A stretch of DNA of 62,158 nt from a virus (IMGVR_UViG_3300013113_000455:1-62158); one strand, 5' to 3'; shown: positions 7,281 through 21,589, counted from the stretch's first letter. Numbers and translations: made by a program. The notes: a model not told the origin generated them from the letters alone.

Positions 7281-7922
7281 CTATTCTTTTTTATCAAACT
7301 CATAAAAATAACCATCTTCTACAGCCCATTTGTGAGCATTCTCACAGAAGAACTCATGGGTGCTTACCTTGAAGTCTGGCGGAGTTAATTTATTTGATGT
7401 CAAAGACTGATCATAGAATAGAACCCTGTTGTTGGGTTGAGCAGCAAACTGACCGTTATCCATCTTAATAATATTAAAAGACTTATGTTCGTTAGGTGTT
7501 TGCGAAAGGCTCACATTTAATTCATTAGGCTCTGAATGACAGCTATCAATAGTAAATAGATAATAACCCTTGTGGAACTTTTTATCTTTCATATATACCT
7601 GACAGTCTATATTCTTTAATATCGTTTTTTCAATGACAGTTATATTATACGAAAAACAATCCCATATTTGCAAGTAATCAAGTGGAACAAATGTATCAAC
7701 ATCAACATCTGTTTTCCAGACAAAAGCTGATATAGGTAGTTTATCATATAAAGCTCCGTATTCAGTTAGGTAGGCTTCAATGTAAAGTGCTTTTCCTAAT
7801 ATGGACTTTACACTTACCCAATAACATGGTTCATAATCTCCATGTCCTTCGTCAAAATCATACAGGTATTCTCTTCTGACATAACACTGTATCTGTGGTA
7901 GGTTGGCTACTAGATAACTCAT
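7281..7922 (-). CDS. conserved phage hypothetical protein
   Basis: MSYLVANLP...WDCFS...HKS...FAAQPNNR family common in aquatic phages; function unknown. Confidence 0.65.
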   Translation of the reverse strand: MSYLVANLPQIQCYVRREYLYDFDEGHGDYEPCYWVSVKSILGKALYIEAYLTEYGALYDKLPISAFVWKTDVDVDTFVPLDYLQIWDCFSYNITVIEKTILKNIDCQVYMKDKKFHKGYYLFTIDSCHSEPNELNVSLSQTPNEHKSFNIIKMDNGQFAAQPNNRVLFYDQSLTSNKLTPPDFKVSTHEFFCENAHKWAVEDGYFYEFDKKE

Positions 7923-8551
7923 TTTTTATTATTGACAACATATTCAGTAATAAACGTTTTCAGCTCTTCGGTAGGCATAGTAACCATAAACTCTGCTAGG
8001 TCTTTGTATTTACCCTCTTGGTCGTATCTTTTAAAAGCAGGAGTTAATTGTAGTTTGGTAATACCGAACATCTTTAATCCGTCAGCTATCTTTTTTAAGT
8101 CAGATACTTTTCTGTCATCTGTAATAAAACTAAAGTCTAACTTCTTGGTGTTTTTCTTAGCTTTCTCTGTAAGGGATTTTCCTTTAGAAACTTTTTCTTG
8201 CTTCTCAACAGTGCCTAACTTTTCTTTAGCGTTACTAACTTCTTCTTTAGAGGCGTAGTTTTCGTTATCACCAATCCCTAATGCTCTGAACGCCCTTCCT
8301 ATCGCAGAGGTCTCGGCATTCTCTACCCAGCTTGTTTTGTTAATGTTGTTAGTGCCTTCTCTTTCAGAGGCTATTCCTGTTGCTACAACCTTGCCTGAGC
8401 CATTGAGTATCTCACACTTAATAATAACCTGATGCTTACCGTCAATAATACAGGTGTCTAGTAAGTGTGTGGTGATTTTATGGGTTGCATAATCTTTTTT
8501 AAATATAGCTTGTCGTTCAGCTACTTTCTGATAGTCTTCATTATAGGTCAT
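7919..8551 (-). CDS. putative single-strand annealing (recombination) protein
   Basis: Y..V.ER, TG.A.E, INKTS.VENAETSAIGRA motif; context with YqaJ nuclease. Confidence 0.5.
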   Translation of the reverse strand: MTYNEDYQKVAERQAIFKKDYATHKITTHLLDTCIIDGKHQVIIKCEILNGSGKVVATGIASEREGTNNINKTSWVENAETSAIGRAFRALGIGDNENYASKEEVSNAKEKLGTVEKQEKVSKGKSLTEKAKKNTKKLDFSFITDDRKVSDLKKIADGLKMFGITKLQLTPAFKRYDQEGKYKDLAEFMVTMPTEELKTFITEYVVNNKK

Positions 8552-8675
8552 AAGTCTTTTTGATTGATTTACGTATTAATTTAGCAACAGATACCTTCTT
8601 TTGTTTTGCTAGTTCTTTCAGCTTAACAATCACATCTCCCTCTATCCTTATCTGGAACTTTGTATCTTTATTCAT
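8541..8675 (-). CDS. ribbon-helix-helix (CopG/Arc-like) regulator, 44 aa
   Basis: Read manually: MNKDTKFQIRIEGDVIVKLKELAKQKKVSVAKLIRKSI, a beta-strand plus two helices pattern; not in ORF track. Confidence 0.7.
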   Translation of the reverse strand: MNKDTKFQIRIEGDVIVKLKELAKQKKVSVAKLIRKSIKKTYDL

Positions 8676-8676
8676 T

Positions 8677-9054
8677 TTATTTTTGATTAACTTTCTTAAT
8701 TTTCATAGCCTCTTCTTTCGTCACTTTGATTACATCTCCTGAGATGAGGTCTTTAACAAAATACTTAAGATCTATTAACTGGTCAATATTGATGTTGGCC
8801 ATATCTTTAAAGATTTCTTCATAGATTGTTTGAATCTCTTGAACTACCTTAACTTCTTTTTCGTTTTTGTGCATAGAACGTTCTACGGGAAGTGTTTTCT
8901 TTTCAAGCTCTGAAAGAAATTTATTTCCATAATACTTTAGTTCTCTGGACCATATTGGGGTGTCTTTAAGGTCTTCAATGTTTTCCAACATTATAATAGC
9001 GTTGGACATAAAAGAGGTGCATAGCCTCTTGTGTTTGTTAATAGCTGCTTCCAT
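8677..9054 (-). CDS. hypothetical protein
   Basis: ORF in packed operon. Confidence 0.6.
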   Translation of the reverse strand: MEAAINKHKRLCTSFMSNAIIMLENIEDLKDTPIWSRELKYYGNKFLSELEKKTLPVERSMHKNEKEVKVVQEIQTIYEEIFKDMANINIDQLIDLKYFVKDLISGDVIKVTKEEAMKIKKVNQK

Positions 9055-9205
9055 ATTTATTCATATTTCCAAGATTGGGTTTACTGATTTTTTTACTCAT
9101 AATTGTGTCACATTTAGGACACTTCACTTCTGTTTTGTAAGACTGAACTAACTTGTCGTTAACTTCTGTTTTGCATTTTTTGCAAACGTAATCGAATATA
9201 GGCAT
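9038..9205 (-). CDS. FmdB-family zinc-ribbon protein, 55 aa
   Basis: Read manually: MPIFDYVCKKC...KCPKC; not in ORF track. Confidence 0.75.
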   Translation of the reverse strand: MPIFDYVCKKCKTEVNDKLVQSYKTEVKCPKCDTIMSKKISKPNLGNMNKYGSSY

Positions 9206-9365
9206 ATTTAATTGTTTGTTGCTTGGTACATAAATATAATTTCAATAGTGACATCTTTTTTACACTCGTCGCAGATGAACTTTGTATCCTCTACGTGCCA
9301 ACCTGAGTCACAGCATTCGGTTTTAATTTTTTTTAAGGCTTTCTCTGCATCCACTACACTTGTGT

Positions 9366-9704
9366 TTACTTGTATACGACAATTTTAAACTCCTTCCCTG
9401 ACATGTCTTTAGCGTCTAACATTGACGGCATCTTGTTAATACAATTAATATAAGCAACTTCACCGCAAACACTAGGAGTTGTAATTTCGTACCAGGTGGC
9501 TTCACCGTTTACAGACTCATAAGCGTATAGCTTTTCTGATTCATAAGATTCAGATCCTAGTTTGTTCAATTCGTCACCCGTTGCAAAAGTCATTTTAGTT
9601 TGTTTGCCATCAAAGCTTTTATGCTCTCTCAAGTAAACATCAAAGGTGCATATTGCTGATGCTTTAAATCCAATAATTAAAAATAATGCCGTTAGTTTTT
9701 TCAT
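9366..9704 (-). CDS. secreted/periplasmic hypothetical protein
   Basis: Start re-assigned to ATG 9704 (overlaps upstream TGA); MKKLTALFLIIGFKASA signal peptide. Confidence 0.55.
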   Translation of the reverse strand: MKKLTALFLIIGFKASAICTFDVYLREHKSFDGKQTKMTFATGDELNKLGSESYESEKLYAYESVNGEATWYEITTPSVCGEVAYINCINKMPSMLDAKDMSGKEFKIVVYK

Positions 9705-9988
9705 AATTCTTTTTCTTGTATTATTACTACTAATTCCTCTAATAGTTTCTTTTGAGCGTCCTCGTATCCTTTGCAGTATGGATACTTTGTGTCTATTGTG
9801 TTTTTTGGTCTGTGATAAGTACCTCTTGCATATATTTTGTAGCAATATTCACTACCTGTTTTTTCTATCCAAGAAACATACCCCCATCTTCTTCTGAACC
9901 AATCAAAGACCTTGCAGTATGTTACATTATCATCGTACCCTAATTGTCTGACTAAAGACAACTCTTTAGAAGTTATTACATCGCTCAT
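9701..9988 (-). CDS. hypothetical protein
   Basis: ORF with A-rich leader. Confidence 0.55.
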   Translation of the reverse strand: MSDVITSKELSLVRQLGYDDNVTYCKVFDWFRRRWGYVSWIEKTGSEYCYKIYARGTYHRPKNTIDTKYPYCKGYEDAQKKLLEELVVIIQEKEL

Positions 9989-10001
9989 TTTTTATTTTTT
10001 T

Positions 10002-10029
10002 AAAAAACCCCCTCAATAAATGAGGGAGT
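10002..10029 (-). terminator. intrinsic terminator closing the nitrogen operon
   Basis: ccctca-ataaa-tgaggg stem with U-run on minus strand. Confidence 0.65.
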
Positions 10030-10104
10030 CTTAATTAATCTAGTTCACTATCAATGATTGATTCTGTTGCTAAATCATCAATATAATCTTCTAAAAAGCA
10101 CATT

Positions 10105-11094
10105 TTAAAAGGAGTATACCGCTGCCAAAACTATGCTTGACAGGTTATCCTTTTGCTCAAATACTTGCTCACTTGCTTTGTCTAATCTATACTCTAACTT
10201 TAGATTCATATTCTCTATTGCATAATCCAAAGTAGTGGTAAAGTTTATAACATTAGCGTCTGCTCCAATTGCTCCAACTCCGTCTCCAACTTCAGCGAAG
10301 TACTCACCTCTTAAACCTGCGGTTAATTTACCAAAAGAATATTGAGGATACAAAGCTGCTCCATAAAAACCGTTGCCATCAGTGTCATTATATGTAGAAT
10401 TTATTCCTAAATAAAATTTTTCTGATAAATTATATCCTCCCGTTAAGTCAACTTGAAAAGTAGCTTCAGAGCTAGGATCTTGTTTTCCTAATAAGAAGTT
10501 CAAATACGTATTCTTGTATGCTAACACAGCACCTAGCGTACTAAAATTAGACGGGTTGAAATCCGTTGCATCAGTAGCGTTTAAAACAGCAAGCATAGCG
10601 GTAAAGTTTTCAGACAAAGCAATGTCTGCCTTTAACCCAGAGTGGGAGAATGGACCGTAGCTAAACATATAGGATGTAGAGTAGTTAAAGTTCCCTGTTG
10701 GACTGATTACTTCATATCCTAGGAAAGTATTAAAGTTACCCATAGTCAAGGTCACACTTTTACTAACGTCCCAATAAGCATAAAGCTGATTAATGATGTT
10801 AGAACTTCCAGTAGATAGAAAAACAGCGTCTTCTCCTCTAGGTCCAAAAACTAAGTCTGCAACAACACCTGTGTTCTTTGTATCGTAAGAACTAATAAGG
10901 TTGAACATACCCAAACTGAAACCGTTTAAGTTAGCAAACGATGTAGCAGGAGCTAAATCTGTTTTTGCTGTACTAAGGTTTCTTCTGTAATAAACGTCTA
11001 CACTTCCCTCTAAAGAAAGGTTTGACTTCAAGCTATCTTGACCGTAAGATAGTATTGTAGTAGCTAATAATATAAATGTAAATAGTTTTTTCAT
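10105..11094 (-). CDS. outer-membrane beta-barrel porin (OmpL/BBP2-like, Amt-associated)
   Basis: Signal peptide, G.VD.YY, GNFNTFLGYE, NYS.SY.F..GPF.H.G, RGEYF, EYRLD, C-terminal YSF (BamA signal). Confidence 0.85.
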   Translation of the reverse strand: MKKLFTFILLATTILSYGQDSLKSNLSLEGSVDVYYRRNLSTAKTDLAPATSFANLNGFSLGMFNLISSYDTKNTGVVADLVFGPRGEDAVFLSTGSSNIINQLYAYWDVSKSVTLTMGNFNTFLGYEVISPTGNFNYSTSYMFSYGPFSHSGLKADIALSENFTAMLAVLNATDATDFNPSNFSTLGAVLAYKNTYLNFLLGKQDPSSEATFQVDLTGGYNLSEKFYLGINSTYNDTDGNGFYGAALYPQYSFGKLTAGLRGEYFAEVGDGVGAIGADANVINFTTTLDYAIENMNLKLEYRLDKASEQVFEQKDNLSSIVLAAVYSF

Positions 11095-11107
11095 TTTTGT
11101 AAAATTA

Positions 11108-11126
11108 AGGGGGTGATTAGCCCCCT
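11108..11126 (-). terminator. intergenic stem-loop between amt and porin
   Basis: aggggg-tgattag-ccccct. Confidence 0.5.
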
Positions 11127-11132
11127 GTGTTA

Positions 11133-12362
11133 TTAATGTTGATTTAATCTGAAATCTGGATAAGCACTCATGCCATGCTCGGCACTGTCTAGTCCTTCAA
11201 GTTCTTCTCTTTTTGGAACTCTAAGTCCCATAATTTTCTTTATGGTAAATAGAATTAAGAAAGAACTAATTAGACAGAAAGCTCCGATTACGGCAACCCC
11301 TATAAGCTGTGTAAGAAATTGACTACCACTAGCTAATTCTCCGAAGATTCCTACTGCTAATGTTCCCCATATTCCACATCCAAGGTGAACAGCGATAGCA
11401 CCTACTGGATCATCTAGTTTAAGTTTGTCTAACAGAGCAACCGCAAAGACTACTATAATACCTCCAATAAGACCTACAACAACAGATTCGTTTGGACTCA
11501 TTTGGTCAGCACCTGCCGTAATAGCGACAAGTCCTCCTAAGATTCCGTTAAGAAACATTGTTAAGTCTAATGTCTTATTCTTAAGATAAGATGTAATAGC
11601 AGCTCCAAAACCTCCTGCTGCTGCCGCAAGGCAAGTAGTAACAAGAGTTAAAGAAGTTAATGCAGCGTCAGCACTTAAAACAGAACCTCCGTTAAATCCA
11701 AACCAACCTAGCCACAAGATTAATACTCCTGCCGTAGCAAAAGGAATATTGTGTCCTAGAATAGCAAAAGATTTACCCTCTTTAAACTTACCTAGTCTAG
11801 CACCAAGTAGCCATACAGCTACTAATGCAGCCCATCCTCCTACAGAGTGAACAAGAGTACTTCCAGCGAAGTCATAGAATCCCATATTATCAAGGAATCC
11901 TCCTCCCCACTTCCAGCTACCTACTATAGGGTATACAAGCCCTACATAGATAACGCTGAAAATCATAAAGCTACTAAGCTTAATTCTTTCAGCTACTGCT
12001 CCTGAGACAATTGTAGCAGCGGTTGCAGCGAACATTCCTTGGAACAAGAAATCAGTCCACCAAGTATAGCCACCGTCAGCATAATCGGCAGTCATTCCAT
12101 TTACAGGTGCATCAATTCCGAAACCTGCAAACTTAAGAACTCCCATGCTACCCTCTTCAAACCCAGGATACATGAGATTAAATCCTCCTATGTAATAGAC
12201 CAAAAGCCCCATACAAATAATGAAGATATTTTTGAACAGGATATTGATGGTATTTTTTTGTCTTGTCAGTCCTATCTCCAACAAGCTAAATCCTAAGTGC
12301 ATAAAGAACACCAAACCTGTACAGACCATCATCCACAGGTTATTTACTGTTAACATTTCCAT
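11133..12362 (-). CDS. amtB: ammonium transporter (Amt/Mep/Rh family)
   Basis: FQGMFAAT..I.SGAVAER, DFAGSTLVH..GG, WLGWFGFNGGS, DDPVGAIAVH; twin-His and Phe gate intact. Confidence 0.97.
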   Translation of the reverse strand: MEMLTVNNLWMMVCTGLVFFMHLGFSLLEIGLTRQKNTINILFKNIFIICMGLLVYYIGGFNLMYPGFEEGSMGVLKFAGFGIDAPVNGMTADYADGGYTWWTDFLFQGMFAATAATIVSGAVAERIKLSSFMIFSVIYVGLVYPIVGSWKWGGGFLDNMGFYDFAGSTLVHSVGGWAALVAVWLLGARLGKFKEGKSFAILGHNIPFATAGVLILWLGWFGFNGGSVLSADAALTSLTLVTTCLAAAAGGFGAAITSYLKNKTLDLTMFLNGILGGLVAITAGADQMSPNESVVVGLIGGIIVVFAVALLDKLKLDDPVGAIAVHLGCGIWGTLAVGIFGELASGSQFLTQLIGVAVIGAFCLISSFLILFTIKKIMGLRVPKREELEGLDSAEHGMSAYPDFRLNQH

Positions 12363-12370
12363 TTCTTCTT

Positions 12371-12709
12371 CTAATTAAGTGTTTGATTACCTCTTTCTTT
12401 GGTTCGGATTCGATATGCTTCCTGCACATCGCTGACAAAAATTTTACCATCTCCGACTTCTCCTGTGTAGGCAGAATCAAGAATAGCGTTAATTGTCCTT
12501 TCTAAAAACTCGTCACTAACGACGATTGAAAGATACCTCCTCTGAATTTCAGAAGTAGAATATGGAATACCTCGATACTTCCTATCGAGCTGCTCGTTAC
12601 CAACTCCTGTACAGTCCCAATAACTAAAGAAAGTTACCTTAACTGCCAATAGAGCCGATTTCACCTCATCAAATTGAGCTTTTCTGATGATGCAATCCAC
12701 CTTTTTCAT
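12371..12709 (-). CDS. glnK: P-II nitrogen regulatory protein
   Basis: MKKV..IIR, T-loop YRG..Y, TGEVGDGKIFV, RIRT.E.G; adjacent to amt. Confidence 0.95.
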   Translation of the reverse strand: MKKVDCIIRKAQFDEVKSALLAVKVTFFSYWDCTGVGNEQLDRKYRGIPYSTSEIQRRYLSIVVSDEFLERTINAILDSAYTGEVGDGKIFVSDVQEAYRIRTKERGNQTLN

Positions 12710-12741
12710 AGCGATTATTTATTGGTTAAAAATTAAAAATG

Positions 12742-12749
12742 CAAAGTTA
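12742..12749 (-). promoter_or_regulatory. Bacteroidota sigma-A -7 element (TAACTTTG) upstream of glnK
   Basis: Reverse complement of caaagtta is an exact TAnnTTTG match about 32 nt before the glnK ATG. Confidence 0.6.
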
Positions 12750-12943
12750 AACTAAAACCTCTTTGGTTTTTTGACAAAATCTATTAATGATCATCGTCAT
12801 TTTGTTTGTCTTTTACTTTTACTGTTTTGATAAATTCTTTTTCGTTAGTCTGAGGGTAAAAATAATACAGGTCTATTTCTCCTGTTCTTAATACTGATAT
12901 TATTTCTTTTCTACCAGTTCTTTCTAGGGGTTTATACGCAAAG

Positions 12944-13195
12944 TTATATTTCTTCATCTGTATAGGCTTTTAATATTTTATTTAAGTTTAGATTTACTCT
13001 GTTCCAGTGAGTAGACAAAACAACCCTAGCTACATTTTCAGACTTAGTGATATTTTTAAATCGTTTTTCGTACTCATTTAATATTTTGTCGGTTAAGAAT
13101 ATAGATAAGTGAATAGCTTCTTTTTTATTTATGCTTATTCCTTTTACTTCCATAACCTCTTTGATAAGATTGTTAGCTTCTTCTTTTGGAGTCAT
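12944..13195 (-). CDS. hypothetical protein (MTPKEEA-type)
   Basis: ORF; N-terminus typical of Bacteroidota phage small proteins. Confidence 0.55.
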   Translation of the reverse strand: MTPKEEANNLIKEVMEVKGISINKKEAIHLSIFLTDKILNEYEKRFKNITKSENVARVVLSTHWNRVNLNLNKILKAYTDEEI

Positions 13196-13389
13196 CTATA
13201 AACAGTTTGATTATGTACAGAAACGCTCTTTCTATGTAGTATAAACAAGAGTTAAACATTAGCAATAAGATTATCCATGCTGTTGATTTCTTTTTCATAA
13301 TTATTTATATATTAGGCTGATTTTTATTAGGTTAGGATATAGTTATTTGCTTCCAAAATATTTGAATTTTGTTTAAGAAGCTAATTTAA

Positions 13390-13413
13390 GTCATTACTTT
13401 TGTAATGACAAAA
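13390..13413. promoter_or_regulatory. palindromic operator-like site
   Basis: gtcattac-tttt-gtaatgac inverted repeat; tttgtaatgacaaaa recurs at 15997-16011. Confidence 0.5.
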
Positions 13414-13551
13414 TAAATTTAATTATTTTGTGAAAGTTCCTCCATAAAGTCTAAAAGGAGTATGTCTAGCATGACGTTTATTGGCATCATTTGGCTCCAG
13501 GTAAGCTCTCCATCTTCGTAGCCTTCTTCTATAGCCAAAGACCTTCCGATC

Positions 13552-13899
13552 TTATATGTGTATTTTTCCATTACTAGCAGTTTTACCTCTCAATTTAATA
13601 AATTCAGATTTAATCTGTTTTATCTTTTGGTAAAGCTTTTCATCCTTTTTTACAAGGTACTGCTCGCTTAGGTTTTTGTGTTCTTTTTCTAATTGTGCAA
13701 TCTTCTCTCCTTTAGTTATTACACTGTTGAGATAGTCCCTGACTGCTTTAATAGAGTCTATTGTTTCGATAGAGAACTGCTTAGAAGGAATGTGTAATCC
13801 TTTGATGTAATATTCACCTACCATAATAGTTATTTTGTCAAACTTATCATTGGTTGTGATAACCGCATTTCCTTCTTTATCTAAAATTAATGTTCTCAT
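13552..13899 (-). CDS. hypothetical protein
   Basis: ORF track. Confidence 0.55.
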   Translation of the reverse strand: MRTLILDKEGNAVITTNDKFDKITIMVGEYYIKGLHIPSKQFSIETIDSIKAVRDYLNSVITKGEKIAQLEKEHKNLSEQYLVKKDEKLYQKIKQIKSEFIKLRGKTASNGKIHI

Positions 13900-13911
13900 A
13901 TTTTTTATAAA

Positions 13912-13980
13912 AATTAACAGGTTGTAAACGCAACCTCGTTCCTCGGTAGTCGCTCAAGCTCGTTTACAAGGGCGTTACCC
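13912..13980 (+). repeat. attC-like recombination hairpin A
   Basis: AATTAAC-agg-TTGTAAACG-[caacctcgttcctcggtagtcgctcaagct]-CGTTTACAA-gggc-GTTACCC. Confidence 0.7.
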
Positions 13981-13984
13981 ACCA

Positions 13985-14176
13985 TTAAGGCAGTTCGGTA
14001 ATGATATAGTTTATAGCCATGTTTATTTCAGTTTCAATCTGAAATTGAAAACCTTTGAAATCATAGACTTTTTTATCCTTTACTTTTTCAAGGCTATACT
14101 TTTGCAATAGTTCATATATCTCAGATAGTGAGATGTTATTCACGTTTGCTTTTATGTTTAAGTTTATTGTCATCAT
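13985..14176 (-). CDS. cassette-borne hypothetical protein
   Basis: Single ORF between hairpins A and B; start re-assigned to ATG 14176 because 14203 lies inside hairpin B. Confidence 0.6.
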   Translation of the reverse strand: MMTINLNIKANVNNISLSEIYELLQKYSLEKVKDKKVYDFKGFQFQIETEINMAINYIITELP

Positions 14177-14194
14177 ATCTATAAAGTTAACGGT

Positions 14195-14254
14195 GGGTAA
14201 CACTGTATAAAAACAAGCTCGTACCTCACCAGATTTTTATACTCAACGTTAACA
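14195..14254 (+). repeat. attC-like recombination hairpin B
   Basis: GGGTAAC-act-GTATAAAAA-[caagctcgtacctcaccaga]-TTTTTATAC-tcaac-GTTAACA; left end is the reverse complement of the right end of A. Confidence 0.7.
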
Positions 14255-14896
14255 AGTCTGAACACCAAAAATATCATCTTCATGGATAACCACATAATCT
14301 TCACCTTCTATCTTAAGATCAACAGCACCCAGAGGTTTAACAACAATCACATCACCTTTACTAACTTCATCAGCAATAAATCTTGAAGGAGCAACCACCT
14401 CTAATAAATCTTCTGTTTTTTTATTCTTAAGGTAGTCTGGAATTATTAAGGTTGTGGATTGAAATATGTTTTTATACTTCTTACAAATGGACCACTTGTG
14501 TATTGGGATTATCTCTCCGTCTACAATCTTACAATATGAGCTAGTAGCATACTTAGCAATCATATCCCTAAAGAACCGAAAGAAAAACTTACCGTCTTCT
14601 GTTCTTCTCTCAAAGTTCACTACATGATGATGAAAGTAAACAACATCACCTTCATCTATTTCATCCAGAGTTATTTGGTCTTTCTTAACCACACTACTAA
14701 GTCCTCTTGGTTTTCCTACTACTGTCCCCTTGTGAGGTATCAAAGAAGGATCTAAAGGAGCAGTGCCGTCTTCTTCCATTCTGGAGAATATAGTATCCAT
14801 GTAAAGCTCTACTTCTTTTTCTCCTAATTTTATGGTTTTTTTCAAATGCTGTTTTAGGTCAATATCAACAAGCATAAAATCTTTTACGTATATCAT
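14249..14896 (-). CDS. GroES-like co-chaperonin (two GroES-like domains)
   Basis: KGTVVG.P...EGDVVYF and KGDVIV...IEGEDYVVIHEDDIFG repeats. Confidence 0.7.
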   Translation of the reverse strand: MIYVKDFMLVDIDLKQHLKKTIKLGEKEVELYMDTIFSRMEEDGTAPLDPSLIPHKGTVVGKPRGLSSVVKKDQITLDEIDEGDVVYFHHHVVNFERRTEDGKFFFRFFRDMIAKYATSSYCKIVDGEIIPIHKWSICKKYKNIFQSTTLIIPDYLKNKKTEDLLEVVAPSRFIADEVSKGDVIVVKPLGAVDLKIEGEDYVVIHEDDIFGVQTC

Positions 14897-15313: not shown

Positions 15314-16009
15314 TCATATATGGTCTTTATAAAAATCCTTATCTCTAATGATTCTACTTACAATGTTGTAGCCTAACACTAGGTCGATTGATAACTTCCT
15401 CTTAGAGCGTGTCTGGTGCAACATAATAACCTTCCTAACCTTATCCAAATCTTTTTCCACAGGGATAAGCTTTTTACCTCTTTTTTTAAATCCAAAAGGT
15501 GCTTTTCTACTGTAGACTTCTAAGTTCTTTTTTTTGTTTTGAAGAATTGTAGATGTTCTCTCAGAGATAATACCTCTCTCCATTTCGTTAAGAGATAGCA
15601 TTAATGATATAAAGAACTTTCCTGTTGCTGTATTGGTATCTATTGATTCACCATTTAAGTCTAGGATTGACATTCCTATTCCTTCTTTATTAAGTGTGTC
15701 AATAAAAGTAAGACCGTCTATTACTTTTCTGGATATACGATCAAGCTTCCATGATACAACGTGGTTTATCTCTTTGTTGTCGATTCTTTCCTTAAGGACA
15801 GAACCTCCTGGTCTTTTGAATATTTTAGAGCCTCCTGAGATGTCTTCGTCAATAATTATATCAACTACCTCATAATCTTTTTCTTTGCAGAACAGGACAC
15901 ATTTATCCCTCTGCATCTCTAATGAGTTATCTTGTTTGTTTGTAGATACTCTAATGTAAATAATTGCTTGGGTTTTCATAATGACTAATTTAATTATTTG
16001 TAATGACAA
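15314..16009 (-). CDS. serine recombinase (resolvase/invertase family); likely start near 15979
   Basis: YIRVST catalytic Ser, D..ISG....RPG, KLDRISR, ER..ISER, PFGF. Confidence 0.92.
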   Translation of the reverse strand: MSLQIIKLVIMKTQAIIYIRVSTNKQDNSLEMQRDKCVLFCKEKDYEVVDIIIDEDISGGSKIFKRPGGSVLKERIDNKEINHVVSWKLDRISRKVIDGLTFIDTLNKEGIGMSILDLNGESIDTNTATGKFFISLMLSLNEMERGIISERTSTILQNKKKNLEVYSRKAPFGFKKRGKKLIPVEKDLDKVRKVIMLHQTRSKRKLSIDLVLGYNIVSRIIRDKDFYKDHI

Positions 16010-18934: not shown

Positions 18935-19573
18935 TTAAAACAAACTGCCTTGATTGTTTTTATTCGCCTTAATTATGCCTTTAGCCCTTTCTAATATGTG
19001 CAAACCTAAATCAGCGTTTACCATATTACGATCTGCTAATGGTTTACTACAAGCCTTATTACCATTTTTATTAACCCCCTTCCAATTTTTACTGTGCTTG
19101 CTGTTTTTGTGCATCATATTACCAACCTCATTATTAGGTTGTTTTATTGGTGGTATTTTAAAATTTGCCCATAAATAATGTCTACCTATTTCAGCGGTTG
19201 GTGGTATAAAATGTTCATAGTATGCTTTTACATTTTCAACACAAAATTTACCCTTGCAAAATGTTTTTAAAAATATTATCTCTTGCCATAATTCCATTTT
19301 TGGATATCTGCTTTCTGTAATGTAGTTTATAAAATAGTTTGCTTTACTATGAGTTTGGCAAGGTGGAGAAGTCCAAATAAACCCATCTTCAAACTCTGTA
19401 TAATTTTTTAAAAGGTACTCGTGAGCATCTGCCACAATTACTTTATCATTAGGGTAAAGCTCTTGGTATTTTTCTGCTACTTTATCATCAAACTCGACCG
19501 CTGTTATTTCGTGTTTATCTCCCCATAATCTACGATTTCCCCCTATTCCAGCATATAAATTAAGTATCTTCAT
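18935..19573 (-). CDS. cassette-borne short C5-cytosine DNA methyltransferase
   Basis: Motif I LYAGIGG, AVE, motif IV SPPCQ, motif VI VENV. Confidence 0.85.
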   Translation of the reverse strand: MKILNLYAGIGGNRRLWGDKHEITAVEFDDKVAEKYQELYPNDKVIVADAHEYLLKNYTEFEDGFIWTSPPCQTHSKANYFINYITESRYPKMELWQEIIFLKTFCKGKFCVENVKAYYEHFIPPTAEIGRHYLWANFKIPPIKQPNNEVGNMMHKNSKHSKNWKGVNKNGNKACSKPLADRNMVNADLGLHILERAKGIIKANKNNQGSLF

Positions 19574-20701: not shown

Positions 20702-21589
20702 TTATGTTAGTGGTATATTTTTAAAGATGTGTGCTATTACGTCAACTGTCCAACCGTTGCCTATCATTTTTTTTCTTTGATTGTCAGAAACACCTTTGGT
20801 ATATCCTTCTGGTATTGTTTGTAACTTTTCTATTTCTGTTATGTTTAGCTTGTATATTTTAAAGTCTTTTACAAATCCGTAGTTACAGGCGGTATTTAAA
20901 GTGTTTATTTTTCCTTTAGAAACTCTACCTCTTCTAGTTTTAGATTTAGGAAAATCTAAGTTTACACCGTCTCCGTTTTCTGCTATTAAATATCCTTTTT
21001 TTGTAGCGTTTCTAACGTAAACACCTTTATCGTCTGTTTTTAATATTAAGTCTTTATCAAGGTATTCTTTTCTATCAGAGTCGATTAAAACATCACTAAG
21101 TGTGATACCTTTGTCTAAGGGTTGTTCTATATTAGGTATGTTGGTCCAGTATAGCCTTTCTCTTTTTTGAGCAGACACTAGACTACTATTTATTAAAATA
21201 CAGTCTACTCCTAATTCTTTTGTTATTATATGCTCCCATTCTTTTTTCATAAGCACATTTTCTAGAAGAAAGTATTTAGGTTTTGTTTCTTTTAATAATC
21301 TTAAAAATTCCCAAAACAATTTGCTTTTACCGTCGAATCCGCTTCCGTCACCTGATCTACTAAAACTTTGGCAAGGGCTACCACCAAAAAGTAAATCAAT
21401 CTTTGGCAAATCTTCTGCTTTTACATCAACTACATTACCAATTTGTTTAGTGTTGGGGTAGTTCTTTTGTGTTATTTGTATAGCGTGTTTGTCAATCTCG
21501 CTTGCAAAGTAATTATCATAATTAATCCCTAGCTTGTTGAGTGCTATCTGTCCGCAACTCATGCCGTCAAATAAACTTAATACATTCAT
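20702..21589 (-). CDS. dcm: DNA (cytosine-5)-methyltransferase
   Basis: SLFDGMSCG, SEID, GGSPCQSFS, LENV, Q.R.R.YW, GNGW motifs. Confidence 0.93.
   Translation of the reverse strand: MNVLSLFDGMSCGQIALNKLGINYDNYFASEIDKHAIQITQKNYPNTKQIGNVVDVKAEDLPKIDLLFGGSPCQSFSRSGDGSGFDGKSKLFWEFLRLLKETKPKYFLLENVLMKKEWEHIITKELGVDCILINSSLVSAQKRERLYWTNIPNIEQPLDKGITLSDVLIDSDRKEYLDKDLILKTDDKGVYVRNATKKGYLIAENGDGVNLDFPKSKTRRGRVSKGKINTLNTACNYGFVKDFKIYKLNITEIEKLQTIPEGYTKGVSDNQRKKMIGNGWTVDVIAHIFKNIPLT

Follow-up and report, generated by a model that had tools for sequence, protein, structure and literature searches.

The linear virus record IMGVR_UViG_3300013113_000455:1-62158, analyzed here over its full 62,158 nt and referred to as the window, carries three adjacent open reading frames (ORFs) at 10,105-12,709 on the minus strand that encode a GlnK-like P-II regulator, an Amt ammonium channel, and an outer-membrane porin. 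We interpret this stretch as a Flavobacteriaceae glnK-amt-porin operon that serves as a self-contained auxiliary cassette in the early/replication arm of a phage, where it would boost ammonium entry during infection, and we assign this interpretation a probability of roughly 0.68. The three ORFs are host-derived metabolic genes in a bona fide viral genome with viral genes on both sides, and they thus constitute an auxiliary metabolic gene cassette, or moron.

The ~62-kb phage genome is organized in two arms, and the cassette lies among replication genes and small phage ORFs. The minus-strand arm comprises a RecE-like exonuclease, a primase/helicase, a small serine recombinase, methylases, and the cassette, and the plus-strand arm comprises the large terminase (TerL), the portal, and virion proteins. 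A complete operon embedded among phage genes was what the initial annotation had proposed, and both parts of that proposal are confirmed: RecE-like exonuclease, primase/helicase, serine recombinase, TerL, and portal genes are identifiable on the two flanks, and each junction is found again in independent contigs. The TerL protein shares 32% identity with that of Flavobacterium phage vB_FspP_elemo and matches 125 records, including 68 from Flavobacterium and 15 from Cellulophaga phages, with Tenacibaculum and Maribacter phages also matched. In sequence, the terminase most closely resembles its counterparts in Flavobacterium and Cellulophaga podophages.

Six IMG/VR contigs (L002, L007, L017, L022, L024, and L029) are collinear with the flanks of the cassette at 85-94% nucleotide identity. 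Both sides are covered by L007, L017, L022, and L024; L002 also spans both sides, reaching only ~650 nt upstream of glnK, and L029 stops within amt and covers the upstream side only. The porin-side junction is additionally present in L172 and L173. Logan contigs from four public runs tile the cassette region, and the 20 runs listed as holders of the sequence include no RNA run. Mean depth in X1 is 15-24 over 8000-13849 and 11.5-15.8 past that point, and depth in X2 is 14-30 up to the limit of its cover (~14,300). Single contigs of X4, a run from a study other than that of the best holders, bridge 9892-10188 and 11913-12809, and record 5 of X1 is one contig across 11973-13977. Read coverage across both junctions, proposed at the outset as a check, is thus even and gives no indication of a chimera. 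An assembly chimera or cellular contamination, with a bacterial operon wrongly joined to a viral contig, could be argued from the GC content of the cassette, which at 0.384 is slightly above the 0.344 of the remaining window, and from the breaks in Logan unitigs at 10013-10028, in the terminator hairpin, and at 13948-13977, in a conserved 70-nt element. In our reading, these breaks reflect branching between strains, not a faulty join. The chimera explanation is effectively refuted by at least eight independent contigs that have one or both junctions, by the run from another study that bridges both borders, by the even depth in X1 and X2, and by the position of the cassette between phage genes in seven further backbones.

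To place the cassette among cellular and viral relatives, we used Amt to scan GTDB, with 80 genome loci listed, and IMG/VR, with 80 viral loci kept; the figures given here refer to the matches listed. The order glnK-amt-porin occurs in at least 9 and porin-glnK-amt in at least 12 of the 80 listed GTDB loci, and amt-porin without glnK is present in at least 6 Bacteroidota loci among the matches listed. Cellular genera with glnK-amt-porin include Maribacter, Robiginitalea, Sediminicola, Croceitalea, and Salegentibacter, and this is an ordinary Flavobacteriaceae arrangement. The inclusion of the porin had been singled out as the unusual part of the phage operon, a claim that does not hold: the trio is common in Flavobacteriaceae, and a viral version is already published (PMC8115048). 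Among the 80 viral loci, 27 carry an Amt that is 86-98% identical to that of the window; of these carriers, 22 have the complete trio intact, 4 are truncated where the contig ends, and 1 (L027) has split frames. In L027:5656-7226, glnK and amt each align as two pieces in differing frames, reflecting either a decaying copy or sequencing errors. The other 53 viral loci (L030-L081 and L026) encode an unrelated Amt (identity, 45-57%) beside which neither glnK nor a BBP2 porin could be detected; amt alone is common in viral contigs.

Phylogenies of the three genes agree on a flavobacterial background. The 24 phage rows of the Amt tree form one clade (Shimodaira-Hasegawa-like approximate likelihood ratio test [SH-aLRT] support of 100) within a Flavobacteriaceae clade (support of 99), and most of the neighboring cellular genomes share the gene order of the phage cassette. 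The 26 phage rows of the porin tree and the 25 phage rows of the glnK tree likewise each form one clade (support of 100 and 99, respectively). The comparison with flavobacterial homologs that the initial annotation called for therefore indicates that the phage copies of each gene are nested in Flavobacteriaceae. The closest cellular Amt is 82% identical across 401 sampled Flavobacteriaceae genomes (244 with a match) and 78% identical among the 80 listed GTDB loci. In a metagenome scan, 79 of the 80 listed loci fall at 50-78% identity, and the remaining one, L263 at 84%, is another phage-type carrier; a protein homolog search returned many Amt relatives at 88-98%, some on contigs of up to 285 kb. 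These sequence relationships are consistent with one capture of the whole operon, as judged from the genomes sampled. A blastn search of INPHARED with 9000-14000 gave no match, and a tblastn search with Amt gave 21 records, all below 60% identity (best, 44.5%), so that no phage genome in that collection carries the cassette.

The ratio of nonsynonymous to synonymous substitution rates (dN/dS), also proposed initially as a check, ranges from 0 to 0.16 for glnK, 0.03 to 0.09 for amt, and 0.04 to 0.14 for the porin when the window copy is compared with other phage copies. Many pairs are synonymously saturated, and the unsaturated ones (L002, L012, and the L007 porin) agree with them. All three genes thus appear to be under purifying selection among phage copies, which would fit a function during infection.

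The cassette is shared by phages that otherwise differ. By flank similarity, the carriers fall in 8 groups whose hallmark genes vary (two terminase types, various primase/helicases, a helicase-methylase, and a polymerase exonuclease), and some carriers are on contigs of 103-172 kb. Two contigs of a phage group other than that of the window, L187 and L020, are collinear at 83% identity save for the cassette site, where L020:5549-8197 (2,649 nt with promoter, glnK, amt, and porin) stands in place of L187:4521-4994 (474 nt), directly upstream of orf95, a small phage ORF described below. As in other morons, the cassette is a discrete unit with its own promoter and terminator, and this pair shows it present in one phage and absent from a related one. 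Within the lineage of the window, we examined 7 primase-matched loci for an empty site, and all that reach the site carry the cassette, as do 8/8 of the relatives of the window phage that reach it. The cassette sits in at least 8 phage flank backgrounds and has been gained or lost as a unit.

Synonymous divergence (pS) from L007 and L022 is 0.12-0.47 in the flanking phage genes, compared with 0.66-0.72 in glnK and amt and 0.68-0.70 in two ORFs upstream of glnK (12784-13195). Because the block is so much more diverged than its flanks, amt, glnK, and the two upstream ORFs appear to mark an allele swap by recombination. The window GlnK protein is also 100% identical to that of L012/L013, which belong to another backbone. 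A separate observation concerns the IMG/VR record G408 (128,733 nt; L012 and L023), which holds two cassettes ~45 kb apart with Amt proteins 91% and 89% identical to that of the window. Each cassette adjoins a phrog_239 primase/helicase, and the 63.6-kb contig L013 matches one half of the record, which may represent two related genomes joined.

The Amt protein scores 405 bits against TIGR00836 (cut-off, 343.3) and thus belongs to the Amt/Mep/Rh family. The best-scoring NCBIfam model is TIGR03644, "probable ammonium transporter, marine subtype," for which its 435 bits fall below the cut-off of 514, and it also falls below the cut-off of the AmtB equivalog NF007947 (188 versus 657 bits). Residues were placed by HMMER alignment to Amt-1 of A. 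fulgidus (2b2f), which identifies the Phe gate F111/F223, Trp W152, Asp D164, the twin His H172/H326, and Ser S227. We take their E. coli AmtB counterparts to be F107, W148, D160, H168, F215, S219, and H318. These seven pore residues are invariant in 24/24 phage and 49/49 cellular copies (73/73), so the twin His, Phe gate, and W148-, D160-, and S219-equivalent residues reported initially are all present.

The P-II gene is separated from amt by 8 nt, and its product can be placed in the GlnK subgroup by this direct linkage together with the T-loop Arg and Tyr. The Arg (R46) is present in 25/25 phage copies and the Tyr (Y50) in 22/25; we take them to correspond to E. coli R47 and Y51. The ATP-binding B-loop TGxxGDGKIF and the C-terminal RxR are kept, with T82, G83, G86-F91, R100, and R102 conserved in 24-25 of the 25 phage copies. 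A search for GlnD (TIGR01693) found it over the cut-off in 0/101 sampled Flavobacteriaceae genomes (best, 30 bits); as controls, 2 of 14 genomes checked pass the cut-off. Because no GlnD was found in these 101 genomes, textbook control by uridylylation probably does not apply to this P-II family. Co-folding of Amt and P-II gave a score of 0.35, compared with 0.00 for the best control; at least 96% of contacts are reproduced between runs, and the partner has a predicted local distance difference test (pLDDT) score of at least 83. The pass mark is reached by 58/80 solved complexes and 2/110 mismatches, and scores of 0.60 or lower include 7 of those 80 solved complexes and both passing mismatches. 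The model gives weak support for docking of GlnK on Amt, and because the E. coli AmtB-GlnK complex is solved, the pass may reflect likeness to that complex at most.

In the AlphaFold2 model of the porin (pLDDT, 80.6; predicted template modeling score, 0.77), residues 3-14 form an N-terminal helix resembling a signal peptide, and 16 strands follow. The C terminus (...VYSF) ends in Phe, and the profile match, the signal-peptide-like N terminus, the closed beta-barrel of the model, and the C-terminal aromatic residue together identify a BBP2 porin. Foldseek matches the model to 16-strand porins with template modeling scores of 0.6-0.68, namely, BpsOmp38, OmpM1, OmpT/OmpU, PorB, OmpF, Omp32, and OprP/OprO. 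Conservation peaks at residues 119-153, a putative constriction loop in which 21 alignment columns are invariant across the 34 sequences, phage and cellular, that were compared. PHROGs holds no family for the porin at an E value of ≤0.001, though P-II and Amt families exist there.

Candidate regulatory elements frame the genes (Table 1), in line with the promoter and terminator that the initial annotation had ascribed to the operon. The candidate promoter box, TAACTTTG, is an instance of TAnnTTTG, which we take to act as the -7 box of Bacteroidetes promoters. This element lies 32-42 nt upstream of glnK in 20/25 phage copies and is not enriched across the window (89 found versus 89.2 expected), and the ~60 nt preceding the glnK start are conserved across differing phage backbones. 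The terminator-like hairpin at the cassette end, which only 2/200 shuffles match in folding, is conserved in L006, L009, L012, L013, and L021. Between amt and the porin, a hairpin of -10.5 kcal/mol or stronger is found in 21/25 phage copies; its stem bases vary and the pairing is kept. Cellular glnK-amt-porin loci have a longer hairpin after amt, and the phage hairpin agrees with the "terminator downstream of amtB" described in the text of PMC8115048.

Table 1. Coordinates of the cassette and adjoining features in the window
Feature	Position	Strand	Description
Window (IMGVR_UViG_3300013113_000455)	1-62158		Entire IMG/VR virus record, linear; CheckV completeness estimate, 98%
orf95	9701-9988	-	95-aa phage-only protein; adjoins the cassette in nearly all carriers
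Terminator-like hairpin followed by U6	~10001-10032	-	Cassette end; -17.3 kcal/mol, z -3.1
Mini-ORF	10035-10103	-	22 codons, coding status uncertain; between porin stop and terminator
BBP2/OmpL-like porin	10105-11094	-	329 aa; PF07642, 210.3 bits (cut-off, 26.2), residues 26-329
GC-rich hairpin in 38-nt amt-porin spacer	11108-11126	-	From a terminator-like scan; candidate attenuator or partial terminator
amt	11133-12362	-	409 aa; PF00909, 392.4 bits (cut-off, 23.2), residues 9-401
glnK-like	12371-12709	-	112 aa; PF00543, 72 bits (cut-off, 25), residues 1-105
Candidate Bacteroidetes-type -7 box, TAACTTTG	12742-12749	-	33 nt upstream of the glnK ATG
Two small phage ORFs upstream of glnK	12784-13195	-	In the same apparent recombination block as glnK and amt

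We propose that the cassette would be transcribed in the infected cell from its own Bacteroidetes-type promoter, with the amt-porin hairpin lowering porin dosage and the terminator past the porin ending the transcript. With more Amt trimers in the inner membrane and more of the 16-strand porin in the outer membrane, the influx of NH4+/NH3 would rise, and the added nitrogen would feed phage nucleotide and protein synthesis under ammonium scarcity. When nitrogen is sufficient, the phage P-II trimer would dock on Amt, and R46 would plug the cytoplasmic exit. We consider binding of effectors (ATP/ADP, possibly 2-oxoglutarate) a likelier trigger for the release of P-II than uridylylation of Y50, because no GlnD was found in the sampled genomes of the host family and because residues of the 2-oxoglutarate site differ. 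Judged from sequence, the most likely role of the cassette is to admit additional ammonium into the infected cell, with the phage P-II gating entry via effector binding.

Several observations weigh against this proposal. The P-II protein falls far below the GlnB/GlnK equivalogs NF007946 (64.2 versus 181 bits) and NF008111 (70.6 versus 202 bits), and Y50 is replaced in 3/25 phage copies (1 F and 2 H). Its effector site deviates at N38, E39, and R57, where the canonical residues of the 2-oxoglutarate/Mg-ATP site are presumably R38, Q39, and K58, and alignment to cyanobacterial P-II structures shows a T-loop one residue shorter, with a gap after position 40. Because of these deviations, sensing of 2-oxoglutarate by the phage P-II is uncertain; 49 cellular Flavobacteriaceae copies have the same ones (GVGNE T-loop base and R57). 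T-loop positions 41-44 differ systematically between phage and cellular P-II, and the phage protein could therefore act differently from that of the host. The GlnK-AmtB sensor logic assumed in the initial annotation is accordingly retained in part: the T-loop Arg and Tyr and the ATP loop are in place, whereas the effector-site residues, the shorter loop, and the GlnD survey depart from it. Elsewhere in the cassette, the exact TAnnTTTG is absent from 5/25 phage copies, the amt-porin hairpin is missing in 4/25, and one carrier, L027, has split glnK and amt frames. The porin fold matches both general and anion-selective porins and points to no particular substrate. A closer cellular donor may exist among unsampled genomes, and the accessible text of 10.1101/053090 reports no viral P-II transcripts in three low-nutrient metatranscriptomes.

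The same genes could serve a different phase of the viral life cycle. An own promoter and terminator and presence/absence between collinear phages make up the classical moron layout, which would suit a lysogenic-conversion moron expressed mainly from a prophage and aiding ammonium scavenging by the lysogen instead of lytic infection. A serine recombinase 2.6 kb upstream (15314-16009; phrog_95 at 2.7e-44, phrog_125) and the classification of the related record G404 as a provirus by IMG/VR point in this direction. However, the recombinase has 231 aa, the size of a resolvase/invertase and not of a large serine integrase, and no tRNA or attachment (att)-like feature was seen. In L173, the additional 4 kb by which the genome is closed consists of tail-fiber-like ORFs with no host DNA or integrase, the phage-type allele occurs in 0/401 sampled Flavobacteriaceae genomes (best identity, 82%), and the nearest cultured TerL relatives are named as Flavobacterium podophages. 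We thus regard a prophage-borne function as unlikely. The payload could also be P-II itself, acting as a regulatory decoy that rewires nitrogen signaling or binds the host Amt without closing it, with amt and the porin secondary. Such a role would be compatible with the systematic T-loop differences, most evident at position 41 (Leu in 18/25 phage copies versus Gln/Lys/Glu in 42/49 cellular copies), with the competition with host P-II raised in the text of PMC8115048, and with the other viral P-II clades that, according to the accessible text of 10.1101/053090, have no amt. It is nonetheless quite improbable, given that amt and the porin show dN/dS constraint equal to or above that of glnK, that the Amt pore residues are invariant, and that the three genes stay intact together in 22/27 carriers, with 4 of the others cut by contig ends and L027 split in frame.

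A role of the porin unrelated to ammonium is a further alternative. As a general nutrient pore or as a changed surface (e.g., for superinfection exclusion), it could have been kept through joint capture with its neighbors. Its fold matches both general diffusion and anion/phosphate porins, it is the most diverged of the three proteins from cellular homologs (45-59% identity compared with 69-82% for Amt), a few other phage porins exist in BFVD, and its substrate is given as unknown in the text of PMC8115048; our literature search for a tested function of an amt-linked flavobacterial porin found nothing relevant. On the other hand, linkage of a BBP2 porin to amt recurs in cells in two gene orders and also without glnK, in at least 6 loci of other Bacteroidota, which suggests a task shared with amt, and the putative constriction-loop region is the most conserved part of the protein. 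A separate task for the porin therefore seems doubtful. In a more far-reaching reading, the operon would move freely as an uptake module after a single capture, and its P-II would have evolved a phage-specific T-loop (41-44) that makes Amt follow phage needs instead of the nitrogen status of the host. The module would then pass by recombination among unrelated marine Flavobacteriaceae phages, from ~62-kb podophage-like genomes to contigs of 103-172 kb, with exchange anchored on the conserved promoter stretch and orf95, and the phage Amt would, for example, stay open when the host would close uptake. We consider this reading unlikely, and we favor the auxiliary cassette that boosts ammonium entry under the control of its own P-II.

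Several small elements adjoin the cassette. A tblastn search with orf95 gave 28 matches, all in phage loci and none in cellular loci; no Pfam or PHROG family was found for it, and Atlas gave only unnamed viral clusters with scores of 0.90-0.91. It lies upstream of glnK in L015/L016 and is present at the empty site of the cassette-less L187 (L187:4995-5282). From this distribution, orf95 may be a flank or recombination anchor outside the host operon. The frame of the mini-ORF is kept in L006, L007, L009, L012, L013, L021, L022, and L027 with both synonymous and nonsynonymous changes, and the mini-ORF is absent where orf95 directly follows the porin. Farther upstream, a 70-nt intergenic element on the minus strand (13902-13977) has a GC content above its surroundings and ends in a hairpin (13919-13936) and a T run. 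The window has one copy of this element, and unrelated cassette carriers conserve it at 80-86%: in L012/L013 it follows the cassette on the downstream side, and in L025/L028 it immediately precedes glnK. Such an element may act in regulation or recombination as a site common to these phages. An Rfam scan of 9000-14500 at an E value of ≤1 gave no match, hence no known riboswitch or leader.

The window also carries other accessory genes (14249-14896, 7281-7922, 18935-19573, and 20702-21589). This set comprises a protein with a Cpn10/GroES-like C terminus, a phrog_3704 member that is labeled ferredoxin and lacks a Pfam match, and two ORFs for C5 cytosine methylases, of which one is short. At L173:9757-13694, ~4 kb with tail-fiber-like ORFs (966 aa and 221 aa) lies between matches to the two ends of the window, which probably lacks this stretch. 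IMG/VR calls the L173 record a provirus, but its examined part shows neither an integrase nor host DNA.

Flavobacteriaceae are major degraders of the organic matter of algal blooms and are often nitrogen limited. If our interpretation is true, a module that covers both membrane steps together with their regulator ties viral infection directly to ammonium drawdown. The present record is useful as a near-complete genome and as evidence of an old, selected module that is mobile among many phage lineages. It further points to a regulator that probably departs from the E. coli uridylylation scheme, and the recurrent amt-porin linkage offers a route toward the substrate of BBP2 porins.

Among known systems, the cellular Flavobacteriaceae operons have the same three families in the same order in at least 9 of the 80 listed loci, with a hairpin after amt, and their P-II shares the GVGNE T-loop base and R57 with the phage protein. 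The phage copies nevertheless form separate clades, and no cellular copy compared exceeds 82% identity in Amt, 72% in GlnK, or 59% in the porin. The spacer between amt and the porin measures ~130-190 nt in cellular loci compared with 13-61 nt in most phage copies, and T-loop residues 41-44 of P-II differ. E. coli GlnK-AmtB (2NS1/2NUU) likewise has the Amt pore residues, a T-loop Arg that plugs the channel, and the P-II ATP-binding loop. The E. coli proteins are only distantly similar in sequence, with AmtB at 155 bits and GlnK at 59-61 bits, and the phage system differs from them in a T-loop shorter by one residue, in N38/E39/R57, and in the linked porin gene. A virus of the eukaryotic alga Ostreococcus tauri reportedly carries a host-derived Amt that was proposed to raise uptake, in work attributed to Monier et al. 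in 2017 and said in PMC8115048, which cites it, to have been tested experimentally; this Amt stands alone without P-II or porin.

The closest precedent is viral. The presence of glnK-amt-porin in ocean viruses was published before by Gazitúa et al. (2021; ISME J 15:981, PMC8115048), whose text describes glnK-amtB-ompL on the viral scaffolds St07_scmB_167 and St14_oxy_4266E, with a promoter upstream of glnK-amtB, a terminator after amtB, and ompL immediately downstream. According to the same text, the PII-Amt-OmpL association is otherwise found in Flavobacteriales only, the three genes are inferred to have been captured from Bacteroidetes, the porin substrate is unknown, the ratio of nonsynonymous to synonymous polymorphism (pN/pS) was not computable for glnK, and the discussion, which raises competition with host P-II, assumes control by uridylylation. 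The accessible text of Roux et al. (2016; 10.1101/053090) describes viral P-II genes beside amt, with Bacteroidetes among the groups from which they were acquired, makes no mention of a porin, and includes other viral P-II clades that lack amt. Our analysis goes beyond the main text of PMC8115048 in the near-complete 62-kb context, the 8 backbones, the matched empty site, and the allele-swap blocks, and also in the dN/dS of the three genes, the porin strand count, and the GlnD survey, some of which its supplements may hold. As judged from published descriptions and not from sequence alignment, the window resembles the viral PII-1 contigs (Gazitúa et al.) and the P-II-1 clade (Roux et al.) in the order glnK-amt-OmpL-like porin, in the promoter, in the terminator-like element after amt, and in a Flavobacteriales/Bacteroidetes origin. 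The GlnK proteins in the former study share 71-72% identity with Flavobacteriales sequences, that of the window up to 72%, and both have the conserved T-loop Tyr.

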